From assembly GCF_001677475.2 (NCBI RefSeq), contig NZ_CP015229.1: a stretch of 64,000 nt of DNA. The stretch is one strand, 5' to 3'. Made by a program: the position numbers and the translations under genes. Positions 30,613-38,356 of the stretch are shown piece by piece; the stretch's first letter is position 1; the number at the start of each line of letters is the position of its first letter. The DNA is from Escherichia coli. Lineage in GTDB: Bacteria > Pseudomonadota > Gammaproteobacteria > Enterobacterales > Enterobacteriaceae. The notes beneath the pieces were generated by a model. The model was not told the origin of the DNA. It worked only from the letters and a program-made list of their open reading frames with translations, and searched no databases.

Positions 30613-31989
30613 ATGCGTTTTATGCAACGTTCTAAAGACTCCTTAGCTAAATGGTTAAGCGCGATCCTCCCCGTGGTCATTGTTGGGCTGGTGGGGCTGT
30701 TTGCGGTGACTGTGATTCGCGATTATGGGCGCGAGACTGCCGCCGCCAGACAAACGCTGCTGGAAAAAGGCAGTGTACTTATCCGTGCTCTCGAATCCGG
30801 CTCGCGCGTCGGCATGGGGATGCGCATGCATCATGCGCAGCAGCAGGCATTACTGGAAGAAATGGCCGGGCAGCCTGGTGTACGTTGGTTTGCGGTCACG
30901 GATGAACAAGGAACAATCGTGATGCATAGCAACTCCGGCATGGTGGGAAAACAGCTTTATTCCCCGCAGGAAATGCAGCAGTTACATCCGGGAGATGAAG
31001 AAGCGTGGCGGCGGATCGATAGCGCAGACGGCGAGCCTGTTCTGGAAATTTATCGCCAGTTTCAACCGATGTTTGCTGCTGGAATGCACCGGATGCGCCA
31101 TATGCAGCAGTATGCCGCGACACCACAAGCAATTTTCATCGCTTTCGACGCCAGTAATATTGTGAGTGCCGAAGATCGTGAGCAGAGAAACACCCTGATT
31201 ATCCTTTTCGCCCTGGCGACGGTCTTGCTGGCAAGCGTATTGTCATTCTTCTGGTATCGCCGCTATCTGCGCTCGCGCCAGCTTCTACAAGATGAAATGA
31301 AGCGCAAAGAGAAGCTGGTGGCGCTGGGGCATCTTGCGGCAGGCGTTGCCCACGAAATCCGTAACCCACTTTCCTCGATTAAAGGACTGGCGAAATACTT
31401 TGCCGAGCGCGCGCCTGCAGGGGGAGAAGCGCATCAACTGGCGCAGGTGATGGCGAAAGAGGCCGACCGTTTAAACCGCGTGGTAAGCGAGTTGCTGGAA
31501 CTGGTTAAGCCAACGCATCTGGCTTTGCAGGCGGTGGATCTCAACACGCTGATTAACCACTCATTACAGCTGGTAAGCCAGGATGCAAACAGCCGGGAGA
31601 TCCAGTTACGCTTTACCGCCAACGACACATTACCGGAAATTCAGGCCGATCCGGACAGGCTGACTCAGGTCCTGTTGAATCTCTATCTCAATGCTATTCA
31701 GGCGATTGGTCAGCATGGCGTGATTAGCGTGACGGCCAGCGAAAGCGGCGCGGGCGTGAAAATTAGCGTTACCGACAGCGGTAAGGGAATTGCGGCAGAT
31801 CAGCTTGAAGCCATCTTCACCCCGTACTTCACCACCAAAGCCGAAGGCACCGGACTGGGGCTGGCGGTCGTGCATAATATTGTTGAACAACACGGTGGTA
31901 CAATTCAGGTCGCAAGCCAGGAGGGAAAAGGCGCAACGTTCACCCTCTGGCTTCCGGTCAATATTACGCGTAAGGACCCACAAGGATGA
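30613..31989 (+). CDS. zraS: Sensor histidine kinase of the ZraSR two-component system
   Basis: 458-aa ORF with TM N-terminus, H-box (HEIRNPL) and ATPase G-boxes. Confidence 0.93.
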   Translation: MRFMQRSKDSLAKWLSAILPVVIVGLVGLFAVTVIRDYGRETAAARQTLLEKGSVLIRALESGSRVGMGMRMHHAQQQALLEEMAGQPGVRWFAVTDEQGTIVMHSNSGMVGKQLYSPQEMQQLHPGDEEAWRRIDSADGEPVLEIYRQFQPMFAAGMHRMRHMQQYAATPQAIFIAFDASNIVSAEDREQRNTLIILFALATVLLASVLSFFWYRRYLRSRQLLQDEMKRKEKLVALGHLAAGVAHEIRNPLSSIKGLAKYFAERAPAGGEAHQLAQVMAKEADRLNRVVSELLELVKPTHLALQAVDLNTLINHSLQLVSQDANSREIQLRFTANDTLPEIQADPDRLTQVLLNLYLNAIQAIGQHGVISVTASESGAGVKISVTDSGKGIAADQLEAIFTPYFTTKAEGTGLGLAVVHNIVEQHGGTIQVASQEGKGATFTLWLPVNITRKDPQG

Positions 31990-33311
31990 CGCACGATAAT
32001 ATCGATATTCTGGTGGTGGATGATGACATTAGCCACTGCACTATTTTGCAGGCTTTACTGCGCGGCTGGGGCTATAACGTCGCGCTGGCGAACAGCGGGC
32101 GACAGGCGCTGGAGCAGGTGCGGGAGCGAGTTTTTGATCTTGTGCTTTGCGATGTGCGAATGGCAGAGATGGATGGCATCGCCACGCTGAAAGAGATCAA
32201 AACATTAAACCCCGCGATTCCGGTGCTGATTATGACCGCGTACTCCAGCGTCGAGACGGCGGTAGAGGCGTTGAAAACCGGGGCGCTGGATTATCTCATC
32301 AAGCCGCTGGATTTCGATAACCTGCAGGCGACGCTGGAAAAGGCGCTCGCACATACGCACAGTGTTGACGCTGAAACGCCTGCGGTGTCTGCCAGCCAGT
32401 TCGGTATGGTCGGTAAAAGCCCGGCGATGCAACACCTGCTCAGTGAAATCGCCCTCGTCGCGCCATCGGAAGCCACGGTGCTGATCCACGGCGATTCCGG
32501 CACCGGTAAAGAGTTGGTCGCCAGGGCGATTCACGCCAGTAGCGCACGGAGTGAAAAACCACTGGTAACGCTCAACTGTGCGGCACTCAACGAATCCTTG
32601 CTGGAATCTGAATTGTTCGGTCACGAAAAAGGGGCGTTTACTGGAGCTGATAAACGCCGGGAAGGGCGCTTTGTTGAGGCGGATGGCGGCACGTTGTTTC
32701 TCGATGAAATTGGCGATATCTCGCCGATGATGCAGGTGCGTCTGCTACGTGCGATTCAGGAGCGCGAAGTTCAGCGTGTCGGTAGCAACCAGACTATTTC
32801 GGTTGATGTCCGGCTGATTGCGGCGACTCATCGCGATCTTGCCGCAGAGGTGAATGCCGGGCGTTTTCGCCAGGATCTCTACTATCGCCTGAATGTGGTG
32901 GCGATTGAAGTACCGTCGCTGCGGCAACGGCGGGAAGATATTCCTCTGCTGGCTGGTCATTTTCTTCAGCGCTTTGCCGAACGTAATCGCAAGGCGGTAA
33001 AAGGTTTTACGCCCCAGGCGATGGATCTGCTGATTCATTACGACTGGCCGGGCAATATTCGTGAGCTGGAAAATGCGGTGGAACGGGCAGTGGTGCTGCT
33101 GACCGGGGAATATATTTCCGAACGCGAGCTGCCGCTGGCGATTGCCAGTACGCCGATCCCGCTGGTACAAAGTCAGGATATTCAGCCGCTGGTGGAAGTC
33201 GAAAAAGAAGTGATTCTGGCGGCACTGGAGAAAACGGGCGGCAACAAAACCGAAGCCGCCCGTCAGTTAGGGATCACGCGCAAAACGCTATTGGCAAAAC
33301 TGTCGCGTTAG
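31986..33311 (+). CDS. zraR: Sigma54-dependent response regulator ZraR
   Basis: 441-aa ORF with receiver domain, AAA+ sigma54-activation domain (GAFTGA) and C-terminal HTH. Confidence 0.95.
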
Positions 33312-34597
33312 TTCTGCTCGCGTTCGATAGCGCGCCAGCCGATATCTTTCCGGCAGAAGCAGTCATCCCAGTGGATATCAGTCATTAAGTCATAGGCGCG
33401 TTTCTGCGCTTCTGCCACGGTATGACCCAGCGCGGTGACGCACAGTACGCGCCCGCCGCTGGTCACCACCTGCTCGTCATCTGCCAGTTTTGTGCCCGCG
33501 TGGAACACTTTGCCGCCTTCGACTTCTTCCAGGGGCAGGCCGTGGATCACATCGCCAGTGCGATAATCGCCCGGATATCCACCCGCAGCCATCACCACGC
33601 CGAGAGAAGCGCGTTCATCCCACTCGGACGTTTTCTCGTCCAGCTTGCCTTCACAGGCCGCCAGGCAAAGCTCAACCAGATCGGACTTCATGCGCAGCAT
33701 AATCGGCTGGGTTTCCGGATCGCCAAAGCGGCAGTTAAATTCAATAACCTTCGGATTGCCCTGTTTGTCGATCATCAGGCCCGCGTAGAGAAAACCAGTG
33801 TAGGTGTTGCCTTCTGCCGCCATGCCTTTCACGGTTGGCCAGATAATTCGTTCCATCGTGCGCTGATGAACCTCATCGGTCACTACTGGCGCAGGGGAGT
33901 AAGCGCCCATCCCGCCGGTGTTCGGCCCGGTATCTTTATCGCCTACGCGTTTGTGATCCTGGCTGGTGGCCATCGGCAGCACATGCTCACCGTCCACCAT
34001 CACGATAAAGCTCGCTTCTTCGCCGTCGAGGAACTCTTCGATAACGATGCGATGCCCCGCGTCGCCAAAAGCGTTGCCCGCCAGCATATCGTGAACAGCC
34101 GCTTCCGCTTCTTCCTGCGTCATCGCCACGATAACGCCTTTCCCGGCAGCCAGACCGTCAGCTTTAATGACGATTGGCGCGCCTTTCTCACGCAGATACG
34201 CCAGCGCAGGTTCTACCTCGGTGAAGTTCTGGTATTCCGCCGTAGGGATCTGATGGCGGGCCAGGAAATCCTTGGTAAACGCTTTCGAGCCTTCCAGCTG
34301 CGCGGCACCTGCGGTTGGGCCGAAGATTTTCAGCCCGGCGGCGCGGAAGGTATCCACCACGCCTTTCACCAGTGGCGCTTCCGGGCCGACGATGGTTAGA
34401 TCGATCTTTTCGTTTTGCGCGAAATCCAGCAGCGCCGGGATATCGGTTACGCCGATAGCGACGTTTTGCAGTGCAGGCTCCAGCGCAGTGCCTGCGTTAC
34501 CCGGAGCAACAAAAACAGTTTCAACCAGCGGCGACTGGGCCGCTTTCCAGGCCAGCGCGTGCTCGCGCCCGCCGTTACCAATCACTAATACTTTCAT
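33308..34597 (-). CDS. purD: Phosphoribosylamine--glycine ligase
   Basis: 429-aa ORF MKVLVIGNGGREHALAWKAAQS... Confidence 0.96.
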   Translation of the reverse strand: MKVLVIGNGGREHALAWKAAQSPLVETVFVAPGNAGTALEPALQNVAIGVTDIPALLDFAQNEKIDLTIVGPEAPLVKGVVDTFRAAGLKIFGPTAGAAQLEGSKAFTKDFLARHQIPTAEYQNFTEVEPALAYLREKGAPIVIKADGLAAGKGVIVAMTQEEAEAAVHDMLAGNAFGDAGHRIVIEEFLDGEEASFIVMVDGEHVLPMATSQDHKRVGDKDTGPNTGGMGAYSPAPVVTDEVHQRTMERIIWPTVKGMAAEGNTYTGFLYAGLMIDKQGNPKVIEFNCRFGDPETQPIMLRMKSDLVELCLAACEGKLDEKTSEWDERASLGVVMAAGGYPGDYRTGDVIHGLPLEEVEGGKVFHAGTKLADDEQVVTSGGRVLCVTALGHTVAEAQKRAYDLMTDIHWDDCFCRKDIGWRAIEREQN

Positions 34598-34608: not shown

Positions 34609-36198
34609 TTAATGGCGGAAGTGGCGCATGTCGGTGAAGAGCATTGCAATACCGTGTTCATCGGCGGCGGCAATCACTTCGTCATCACGGATAGAACCGC
34701 CAGGCTGGATTACGCAGGTCACGCCCGCAGCGGCGGCGGCATCAATACCGTCGCGGAACGGGAAGAACGCGTCAGAAGCCATCGAGGAACCTTTCACTTC
34801 CAGACCTTCATCGGCCGCTTTAATACCGGCGATTTTCGCGGAGTACACGCGGCTCATCTGGCCCGCGCCAATGCCGATGGTCATATTGTTTTTGGCATAG
34901 ACGATGGCGTTGGATTTCACGAACTTCGCCACCTTCCAGCAGAACAGCGCATCACGCAGTTCCTGTTCGCTCGGCTGGCGTTTGGTGACGACGCGCAGTT
35001 CTTCCGCACCGACCATGCCCAGATCGCGATCCTGAACCAGCAGACCGCCGTTCACGCGTTTGAAATCAAGACCCGGAACACGCTCGCCCCACTGACTGCA
35101 GGTCAGGACGCGTACGTTCTGTTTGGTGGCGGTGATTTTCAGGGCTTCTTCGCTGGCGGACGGCGCAATAATCACTTCAACAAACTGACGAGAAATGATG
35201 GCCTGCGCGGTTTCCGCATCCAGCTCGCGGTTAAAGGCGATAATGCCGCCGAATGCGGAGGTCGGGTCGGTTTTGTACGCGCGATCGTAAGCATCAAGAA
35301 TGGAATTGCCGATAGCCACGCCGCAAGGGTTGGCGTGCTTCACAATCACACATGCCGGCTCGGCGAACTCTTTCACGCACTCCAGCGCCGCATCGGTATC
35401 GGCGATGTTGTTATAAGAGAGGGCTTTACCCTGAACCTGGATTGCGGTAGCAACGGAGGCTTCTTTCACATTCTCTTCTATATAGAAGGCAGCCTGCTGG
35501 TGGCTGTTCTCGCCGTAACGCATATCCTGCTTCTTAATGAAGTTCAGGTTCAGCGTGCGTGGGAAGCGACCGGCGGCTTCTTTGCTTTCACCGTGATAGG
35601 CTGGGACCATGCTGCCGAAGTAGTTGGCAATCATGCTGTCGTAGGCGGCGGTATGTTCAAAGGCTTTGATAGCGAGATCGAAACGGGTTGCAAGCAGAAG
35701 CGATCCTTCGTTGGCATCCATCTCTTTAATGATGGCGTCGTAGTCGCTGCTCTTCACCACGATGGCGACATCTTTATGGTTCTTGGCGGCGGAGCGCACC
35801 ATCGTTGGGCCGCCGATATCGATGTTCTCAACCGCATCTTCCAGCGAGCAACCTTCACGGGCAACGGTCTGGGCGAACGGATACAGGTTAACAACCACCA
35901 TATCGATAGGCTGGATCTGATGTTCTTCCATAATGGCATCGTCCTGGCCGCGACGGCCCAGAATGCCACCATGTACTTTCGGATGCAGGGTCTTCACGCG
36001 TCCATCCATCATCTCCGGGAAACCGGTGTAATCGGAAACTTCGGTTACCGGCAGACCTTTTTCTGCTAACAGACGGGCAGTGCCCCCTGTAGACAGCAGC
36101 TCCACACCGCGTGCGGAAAGTGCCTGGGCGAATTCGACGATACCGGCTTTGTCAGAAACACTGAGCAGAGCGCGGCGGACTGGACGACGTTGTTGCAT
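34609..36198 (-). CDS. purH: Bifunctional AICAR transformylase / IMP cyclohydrolase
   Basis: 529-aa ORF. Confidence 0.96.
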
Positions 36199-36304
36199 GG
36201 TAAATCCCCTGGATTTGACTATTACAGAGAGCGTTAGCTGAATTTTTCGCGAAAAACTCAGCTAACGCCCCTAACGGGGCATCCTTATTTTTCGCCCGCA
36301 TTGT

Positions 36305-36321
36305 AACGAAAACGTTTGCGC
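36305..36321. promoter_or_regulatory. PurR operator (PUR box) in the purHD promoter
   Basis: Minus-strand GCGCAAACGTTTTCGTT matches the PUR-box core GCAAACGTTT, about 110 nt upstream of the purH start. Confidence 0.6.
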
Positions 36322-36492
36322 AACGCTCGCGAATTTTTCTCTTTCAATGGTGATCACAATTTTGACAGTGTTTACCGTGGGAAAAATACAGAAATTACAT
36401 TGATGATTGTGGATAACTCTGTGCGTAAAAAGGTATAAAGCGGGGTTTTGCTGGGGAATGCAGCAGTCAGTCATTTTTCTGCAATTTTTCTA

Positions 36493-36520
36493 TTGCGGCC
36501 TGCGGAGAACTCCCTATAAT
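36493..36520 (+). promoter_or_regulatory. rRNA operon promoter P1
   Basis: -35 TTGCGG, 16-bp spacer, -10 TATAAT followed by GC-rich discriminator GCGCC, as in rrn P1 promoters. Confidence 0.7.
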
Positions 36521-36602
36521 GCGCCTCCATCGACACGGCGGATGTGAATCACTTCACACAAGCAGTCGGTTCGGTTGAAGAGAAAAATCCTGAAATTCAG
36601 GG

Positions 36603-36630
36603 TTGACTCTGAAAGAGGAAAGCGTAATAT
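36603..36630 (+). promoter_or_regulatory. rRNA operon promoter P2
   Basis: -35 TTGACT, 16-bp spacer, -10 TAATAT about 110 nt after P1. Confidence 0.65.
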
Positions 36631-36814
36631 ACGCCACCTCGCGACAGTGAGCTGAAAGCCGCGTCGCAACTGCTCTTTAACAATTTATCAGACAATCTGT
36701 GTGGGCACTCGAAGATACGGATTCTTAACGTCGCAAGACGAAAAATGAATACCAAGTCTCAAGAGTGAACACGTAATTCATTACGAAGTTTAATTCTTTG
36801 AGCATCAAACTTTT

Positions 36815-38356
<1,542 letters not shown>

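Follow-up and report, generated by a model that had tools for sequence, protein, structure and literature searches.

In the purHD leader of Escherichia coli we identified a pair of neighbouring RNA stem-loops, P1 and the long P2, and we established their structure, the strand on which they form, their compensatory conservation over Enterobacterales and their absence from Rfam. The novelty lies in a leader structure that is conserved and covaries, and whose foot and tail are invariant; a function is proposed for it. We consider it somewhat better than an even bet that the two stem-loops provide a second layer of purHD control, acting in cis by two-state folding. Post-transcriptional control through alternative pairing and/or recognition of double-stranded RNA would be its favoured form, and each single mechanism is rated below this statement as a whole.

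The DNA analysed (the window) is a stretch of 64,000 nucleotides. The palindrome that encodes P2 and the GC hairpin next to it lie in the ~330 bp that separate purH from the divergent rrnE promoters, and the region was matched by 5419 of 5426 complete E. coli genomes. The features of this setting are as follows.

33308-34597, minus strand: purD
34609-36198, minus strand: purH open reading frame, with its start codon at 36196-36198
36291-36295 (~36293), minus strand: predicted purHD transcription start, 7 nt past the -10, from -10 geometry
36300-36305, minus strand: TACAAT, the purHD -10 hexamer, with no gap to the PUR box
36306-36321, minus strand: PurR operator (PUR box), ACGAAAACGTTTGCGC on the plus strand and GCGCAAACGTTTTCGT in purH sense
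near 36825, plus strand: start of the 16S rRNA of rrnE

The PUR box is identical to the purH-purD entry among the published PurR ChIP-chip motifs (ACGAAAACGTTTGCGC). The string AACGTTTTCG[T/C]TACAAT was unchanged in most Enterobacterales purH loci, which were collected via the PurH protein, and the TACAAT hexamer was invariant in the ~45 genomes compared. A generic sigma-70 scan did not call the purHD promoter because its -35 is poor, so the assignment of TACAAT as the -10 comes from conservation and position. On the purH strand the order is PUR box, TACAAT (36305-36300), the GC-rich discriminator GCGGGC that precedes the predicted start, GAAAAAUAAGGAU, P1, P2 and GCUCUCUGUAAUAGUC, followed by a small Shine-Dalgarno hairpin and the AUG at 36198. 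A start ~7 nt after TACAAT places both hairpins inside a 5' UTR of ~95 nt, and they begin 13 nt downstream of that start. Because the palindrome lies downstream of the PUR box and of the invariant TACAAT, it is almost certainly transcribed within the purHD 5' UTR, the start site being placed by -10 geometry.

The 5' end of the E. coli purHD mRNA was reportedly mapped by Flannigan et al. 1990 and by Aiba and Mizobuchi 1989, and the same papers are said to describe two mutually exclusive dyad symmetries at that end. These dyads are probably the same two hairpins as P1 and P2. The reports of 1989-90 concern one sequence, to which conservation, covariation, strand assignment and the invariant tail are added here.

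The discriminator reads TACAAT-GCGGGC in E. coli (36294-36299, minus strand), GCCCCC or GCCGCG in relatives and TAGAAT-ATGCGCC in Vibrio, and is similar to that of rrn P1 (TATAAT-GCGCC), which also lies in the window. A GC-rich discriminator would suggest sensitivity to ppGpp/DksA.

The sequence-only reading had described a 34-bp near-perfect palindrome at 36233-36266. A repeat search bore this out and lengthened it by 2 bp on each side: the arms, 36231-36249 and 36250-36268, are 19 nt each, 95% complementary and spacer-free. Their single mismatch on the plus strand, A36242 opposite C36257, becomes a G.U wobble in minus-strand, purH-sense RNA. A GC hairpin and a T-rich run had been placed after the palindrome, and then a PUR box. 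The sequence is as described, with GCCCC-TAAC-GGGGC at 36267-36280 on the plus strand followed by ATCCTTATTTTT and with the PUR box at 36306-36321; the first two bases of the GC hairpin also belong to the extended palindrome. No other close inverted repeat in the 64-kb window is as long or as perfect as this 38-bp palindrome, and chance would supply ~64000 x 58 / 4^19, or roughly 1e-5, such palindromes per window. In 5381 of 5419 E. coli genomes the 63-nt core of the motif shows 99% identity or more. It is present once, with no further copy of the motif in the 64-kb window or in the E. coli genomes. The purH-sense leader folds at -40.1 kcal/mol, as compared to -25.8 +/- 3.2 for shuffled sequences (z = -4.5). 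The elements of this RNA are listed below.

36288-36295, minus strand: GCGAAAAA at the 5' end, the exact complement of UUUUUCGC at 36249-36256 in the left arm of P2
36267-36280, minus strand: P1 hairpin GCCCC-GUUA-GGGGC (C-run 36276-36280, G-run 36267-36271), a -10 kcal/mol fold
36233-36266, minus strand: P2 core GUUAGCUGAGUUUUUCG / CGAAAAAUUCAGCUAAC, 15-17 bp with a 4-nt loop and a G36257.U36242 wobble
36228-36232, minus strand: GCUCU tail, directly 3' of P2, able to pair with the P1 G-run 36267-36271
36222-36233, minus strand: BoxA-like stretch CGCUCUCUGUAA, with 3 mismatches to GYUCUUUAANA, a resemblance only
36202-36216, minus strand: small hairpin AAAUCC-AGG-GGAUUU of the MFE folds, including the Shine-Dalgarno AGGGGA at 36205-36210

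The sequence of the Shine-Dalgarno hairpin is kept in Enterobacteriaceae, without covariation. Several other candidate elements of the E. coli leader were rejected. Pairing of the 5' GCGAAAAA with the left arm of P2 is Escherichia-specific and is not kept in other genera; closure of the domain by 5' GGAU with AUCC occurs in the E. coli MFE fold, yet it is not conserved. An upstream open reading frame over P1, AUG-CCC-CGU-UAG, lacks a usable Shine-Dalgarno spacing and its frame is not conserved. Recognition by CsrA of the GGA motifs flanking P1-P2 (AAGGAUG at 36279-36285 and the Shine-Dalgarno) was discounted for want of conservation: some E. coli already lack the 5' GGA (G>A at 36284), as do Erwinia and Serratia. 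A literature search returned no link between CsrA and the purHD leader.

Conservation in relatives had been named beforehand as the comparison by which the palindrome should be judged, and when it was run the palindrome proved to be kept by compensatory changes across Enterobacterales. We compared 41 distinct genome-derived leaders, among them those of Escherichia, Citrobacter, Kluyvera, Enterobacter, Cedecea, Pluralibacter, Siccibacter, Pantoea, Erwinia, Dickeya, Brenneria, Serratia, Yersinia and Rahnella. The same plan recurred in them: a C-run/G-run hairpin, GUUA[G/C/U]CUGA, a variable apex, UCA..UAAC and GCUCU. The long hairpin folds in all 41, with a P2 of 14-34 bp whose apex ranges from the 4-nt loop of E. 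coli to ~70 nt with sub-helices of its own, often around UCUAUAUAGA; in Yersinia thracica (L039) P2 is a perfect 27 bp. In an anchored, gap-free alignment with the apex replaced by NNNN (A1), 91.5% of the cells held standard pairs vs. 33-49% when the partners were slid. Double-sided changes were found in 8 of the 18 pairs, and none of 500 shuffles reached the covariation score.

A metagenome scan keyed on the promoter alone added 54 unique leaders, giving 80 distinct rows when pooled. Compensatory changes thus maintain P2 across these ~80 leaders, which span the Enterobacterales from Escherichia to Yersinia, Serratia, Pantoea and Dickeya. Over the 80 rows, pair 31-52 was GC in 39, CG in 32, UA in 4 and UG in 2; pair 32-51 was CG in 28, GC in 6, AU in 3 and otherwise a C.C or C.U mismatch; pair 36-47 was GU in 34, AU in 30 and GC in 16. 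RNAalifold, given no structure, predicted P1 as well as P2. P1 was found in 75 of the 80 leaders with varying arms (e.g. GCCUC/GAGGU, CCCG/CGGG); in Dickeya, Brenneria and Rahnella it is weak or missing. The 4-bp foot of P2 (GUUA/UAAC) is essentially fixed, as is the pentamer GYUCU that follows it, and the rest of the helix covaries. In the tail of the 80 anchored rows, G, U, C and U stand in 80/80 and Y in 79/80, an invariance of GUUA/UAAC and GCUCU that is partly built in because the rows were chosen by a pattern requiring TAA[C/T]G[C/T/A]TCT. At least seven purH leaders without the motif were excluded as unalignable (Photorhabdus, Proteus, Budvicia, Edwardsiella, Rosenbergiella, Tatumella and Mangrovibacter); those of Tatumella and Mangrovibacter have a long hairpin of other sequence in its place.

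Part of the compensatory change in a DNA palindrome may be mutational, through template switching, rather than selected. The long inserts at the P2 apex (L021, L030, L036, L039, L094, L196 and others) repeatedly contain short perfect palindromes around UCUAUAUAGA, e.g. CUUCUAUAUAGAAG. This pattern suggests symmetric lengthening at the tip of the hairpin, which is what template-switch mutation in DNA palindromes would produce. Among 120 metagenome matches to the 17-mer AACGTTTTCGYTACAAT, 50 had no recognisable PurH start, as judged by the conserved N-terminal motif, within the next 420 nt (L083-L201); each is either a chance hit, given the great size of the collection, or a promoter with a PUR box that serves another gene.

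That the palindrome might be a strong RNA hairpin in the purHD 5' UTR was one of the earlier suggestions, and it was supported by the position downstream of the invariant -10, by the compensatory changes, by an asymmetry of wobble pairs toward the purH-sense strand and by a strand-specific match to a covariance model. The one mismatch in E. coli is G.U in the purH-sense strand and A.C in the opposite strand. Among the 41 leaders, the sense hairpin is stabler than the antisense one in 34, and G.U pairs number 68 vs. 33. The covariance model, R1, scored 75.3 bits on the minus strand vs. 23.8 bits on the plus strand, where it matched the bare palindrome only. Pairing of GCUCU with the G-run was possible in 191 of 205 cells (93%) in the sense strand vs. 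115 of 205 (56%) in the antisense strand. Within Escherichia the 105-nt leader has three variable sites, one of them unpaired, and the sole substitutions in helices, C>U at 36267 and 36251, both leave G.U pairs in sense RNA. These comparisons favour purH-sense RNA as the structured molecule.

The two-state proposal is as follows. The leader would act in cis after the start of transcription, as a second layer atop PurR. When the G-run at 36267-36271 pairs with the upstream C-run, P1 would form and the ribosome-binding site would be available. Alternatively, the same G-run would pair with the GCUCU tail, extending P2 to a double-stranded RNA of ~24 bp and excluding P1; the C-run freed in this state would mask the G-rich Shine-Dalgarno. 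The extended helix would also be long enough to be a substrate of RNase III, a double-strand-specific nuclease. The balance between the two folds would set the translation and/or decay of purHD mRNA. Our search of the accessible literature yielded no experiment on the purHD leader and nothing on its structure.

Constrained folds of the two states differ by -1.9 +/- 2.6 kcal/mol (n = 36 full leaders), which makes them near iso-energetic. In the extended state of these 36 constrained leaders the C-run often pairs with the G-run of the Shine-Dalgarno, a complementarity to be expected from any C-rich arm. One lineage, Brenneria, carries a compensatory change in the extension, from G-C to A-U. Against the two-state fold, the two G.U pairs of the extension hardly vary. 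GCUCU is unchanged where the G-run differs, giving U.U in Klebsiella-type leaders and A.C in Yersinia and Rahnella, and this fixity despite changes in its partner points to a sequence-specific constraint beyond pairing. Such a switch cannot be universal, since Dickeya, Brenneria and Rahnella have a weak P1 or none.

The leaders of pnp, rnc and adhE are E. coli mRNA leaders processed by RNase III. Like them, the purHD 5' UTR has a long near-perfect intramolecular helix (19 bp, ~24 with the extension); unlike them, it has a conserved sequence at the helix base and a competing P1, and its cleavage by RNase III is a proposal. With 19 paired positions and a 5-bp extension, the helix attains the length taken as the criterion for RNase III, ~20 bp or more of near-continuous double-stranded RNA. 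The main text of two E. coli RNase III cleavage maps makes no mention of the purH hairpin, and purHD is repressed in rich medium. A single entry for purH-rrsE appears in the accessible parts of these maps, and it is attributed to rRNA.

The purH leaders of Vibrionales, Aeromonas, Shewanella and Ferrimonas contain a different long hairpin, with the conserved base GGUAUUU...AAAUAUC, compensated inner pairs, a variable apex, often one 1x1 mismatch and a U-rich stretch after it. In our collection of purH loci it lies at 2426-2470 of L052, 2423-2475 of L063, 2417-2470 of L064, 2395-2437 of L062 and 2408-2469 of L080, among others. No rRNA was detected within 2.5 kb upstream of these Vibrio-type purH loci. 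Pasteurellaceae purH leaders are short and have no such hairpin. Homology between the Vibrio-type and the enterobacterial hairpins was considered and rejected; it is suggestive by eye, yet model R1 found no match in the Vibrio-type leaders, and we therefore treat the two as separate, analogous motifs. The Vibrio-type hairpin had no Rfam match and looks like a second unannotated purH leader motif.

In a search of Rfam 15 with 35900-36800 of the window (E <= 10), the hairpin matched only mir-725, at chance level (23.8 bits vs. a gathering threshold of 76), and at the gathering threshold 20 purH loci gave no match to any family, ZTP/pfl included. The ZTP (pfl) riboswitch controls purH and folate genes in many other phyla. 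The purHD leader precedes the same regulated gene at the same leader position, but it has no similarity to that riboswitch in sequence or structure, and its hairpin has a variable apex without an obvious ligand pocket. Since no ZTP match was obtained in Enterobacterales or Vibrionales, the hairpins described here are the only conserved RNA structure found before their purH. The enterobacterial pyrC and pyrD leaders offer a further comparison: a hairpin sequesters their Shine-Dalgarno, as set by choice of the start site. They share with purHD an mRNA for nucleotide biosynthesis, a PurR-box promoter and leader pairings able to cover the ribosome-binding site. Their hairpins are short and include the 5' end itself, whereas the main purHD helix is far longer and excludes the Shine-Dalgarno, and start-site switching is not indicated.

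The pur regulon of E. coli is a textbook case of control by one repressor, PurR. The product of purH consumes AICAR (ZMP), which in other phyla is sensed by a riboswitch before the same gene, and a conserved RNA before enteric purH is thus a concrete place to seek equivalent control by AICAR/ZMP. The purHD locus has been sequenced since 1989-90, and a more recent report places RbsR at purHD beside PurR. A leader RNA compensated throughout the order would mean an unstudied second, post-transcriptional control of purHD. If the element is merely a hairpin for stability or processing it is ordinary, and it still fills an annotation gap because Rfam has no family for it.

The most far-reaching alternative, which we think unlikely, is that P1, P2 and GCUCU together represent a regulatory RNA of a new class, responding to a factor or a ligand and confined to the purH of Enterobacterales; Vibrionales would have an analogous class of their own. 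Such a leader would occupy the place that the ZTP riboswitch holds in other phyla. In a concrete version, P2 would be boxB-like and the adjoining CGCUCUCUGUAA a degenerate BoxA for NusB/NusE, together forming a site of the rrn or lambda nut type through which purHD expression would follow how much rRNA transcription is demanded of the neighbouring rrn operon. Its effect on purHD would be repression or some other change of expression, as with BoxA at suhB, and through it purine synthesis could be coupled to the pool of free Nus factors near rrnE.

We regard this Nus-factor reading as rather unlikely. As with boxB before boxA in rrn leaders, the P2 helix directly precedes GYUCU, which equals BoxA positions 2-6. 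Directly 3' of the helix, G-Y-U-C-U is invariant in the 80 anchored leaders, and the critical G2, C5 and U6 (G57, C60 and U61) are present in 80/80 rows, all of these being bases that the selection pattern demanded. Pairing alone leaves the fixation of GCUCU unexplained, and GCUCU beside a helix would be a candidate Nus-factor site outside rRNA. Serratia, Rahnella and Dickeya read CGCUCUUUA, and Pantoea and Erwinia read CGCUCUUA, which we take to be the lambda BoxA core. The purHD leader also adjoins rrnE, whose own boxA lies in the same window, and its hairpin followed by GYUCU in a 5' leader is an arrangement shared with the rrn leader, lambda nut and the suhB BoxA.

The rrn BoxA is UGCUCUUUAACAA. 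Positions G2, C5 and U6 of BoxA have been reported to be intolerant to transversion, BoxA elements regulate non-rRNA genes such as suhB, and NusB-NusE has been described as having a site for double-stranded RNA contiguous with the BoxA site. However, none of the 80 leaders matches GYUCUUUAANA, the gamma-proteobacterial consensus that we used; the best have 1 mismatch (Dickeya, Brenneria) and E. coli GCUCUCUGUAA has 3. Positions 7-9 drift freely between genera, unlike those of true BoxAs, and the base of the purH hairpin is conserved in sequence, unlike that of boxB in rrn and lambda nut. The Vibrio-type leader has the hairpin without G2/C3, and purHD is a translated mRNA without an obvious need for antitermination. 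A gamma-proteobacterial BoxA survey does not name purH in the portions of its text and supplements that were searchable, and our search found neither binding of NusB, NusE or SuhB nor Nus-dependent expression reported for purH.

P2 and its U-containing tail could also be a leader attenuator or a hairpin-dependent pause, so that some transcripts would terminate or be held up ahead of purH, to a degree set by P1 or by other pairings. A long stable hairpin followed by pyrimidine- or U-rich sequence does occur in many lineages, for example CUCUUUAUAUUG in Serratia and UUUAUUUUUAAC in Vibrio mexicanus (L056). Yet the E. coli tail, GCUCUCUGUAAU, has no U-tract, only 4 U in 8, and a terminator scan made no minus-strand call at P2. 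Among the Term-seq 3' ends listed in the accessible part of the source, none is premature in the purH leader. A leader peptide is likewise missing, as is a conserved antiterminator to the P2 arms, so that on the purH strand the combination of hairpin, U-tract and antiterminator was not found. We judge attenuation quite unlikely, and two-state control of a transcribed leader is still the reading that we prefer.

Two readings at the level of DNA had been offered as well, and neither held up. The first was a site for a dimeric regulator, for example an operator at which RbsR would form a roadblock downstream of the start. RbsR, a LacI-family protein, has been reported to repress purHD, and its rbs operator is TCAGCGAAACGTTTCGCTGA. 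The 38-bp palindrome of E. coli looks perfect and has the words TCAGC, GCTGA and CGAAA in common with TCAGCGAAACGTTTCGCTGA. In relatives, however, the distance between the half-sequences runs from 0 to ~60 bp, and the 4-bp centre differs among close genera (CGCG, UGCG, ACGC, AGCC, AGAC). An operator needs fixed spacing and a conserved centre; both vary here, and a dimeric DNA operator was therefore discarded. The double changes preserve complementarity and not a fixed half-site. LacI-family operators are 14-20 bp with a central CG, A-rich on the left and T-rich on the right, at fixed spacing. The palindrome departs from this form, and its polarity (T-run, CG, A-run) is opposite to that of the PUR box and the rbs operator. 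The rbs core had no match with up to 3 mismatches anywhere in the purH-rrn spacer. An operator, RbsR's included, is thus very improbable.

The second was a terminator insulating the rrn promoters, in which GCCCCTAACGGGGC and the T-run on the plus strand would stop antisense transcripts heading to rrnE P1. The plus strand of E. coli does fit a simple consensus for an intrinsic terminator, but the T-run begins 5 nt after the stem and is unconserved outside Enterobacteriaceae, so a Rho-independent terminator was not recognised there. The natural C>U variants of Escherichia produce A.C mismatches that would weaken the plus-strand stem. No promoter-like site on the plus strand was found in 35900-36230, and there is no upstream plus-strand unit. 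A long purH-leader hairpin also occurs in Vibrionales, with no rrn operon detected within 2.5 kb upstream. The chance that the palindrome serves as such an insulator seems to us remote. Least probable of all is a DNA cruciform or supercoil sink, fed by negative supercoiling behind the divergent rrnE promoters: a perfect AT-centred palindrome does lie ~260 bp upstream of rrnE P1 and the purH-rrn adjacency is conserved in Enterobacterales, but the G.U-only pairs, 1x1 mismatches and large asymmetric internal loops of the relatives would block extrusion, and Vibrio-type hairpins occur with no detected rrn neighbour.

Some further observations concern the surroundings of the leader. The divergent purH-rrn arrangement is kept across Enterobacterales (loci L002-L051; 36480-36530 in the window). 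Most draft contigs end 250-740 nt upstream of purH, and at several of these ends the rrn P1 -10 region can be read in reverse complement, as CTCCCTATAATGCG. A perfect match to the DnaA-box consensus sits between the purH promoter and rrnE P1, at 36408-36416 (TGTGGATAA on the plus strand, TTATCCACA in purH sense); of the 114 purH loci compared, 108 have the 9-mer in this orientation, at most 220 nt upstream from the PUR box. At the other end of the operon, the open reading frame at 31986-33311 (plus strand, 441 aa), by its position presumably zraR, converges on purD and overlaps it by 4 nt (33308-33311), which leaves no room for an intervening terminator. On the rrnE side, the Yersinia sRNA family Ysr197 of Rfam gave a sub-threshold match at 36460-36693 on the plus strand (115 bits vs. 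a gathering threshold of 167). The match spans the rrnE P1/P2 promoter-leader region, and the Ysr197 family probably derives from an rrn leader.
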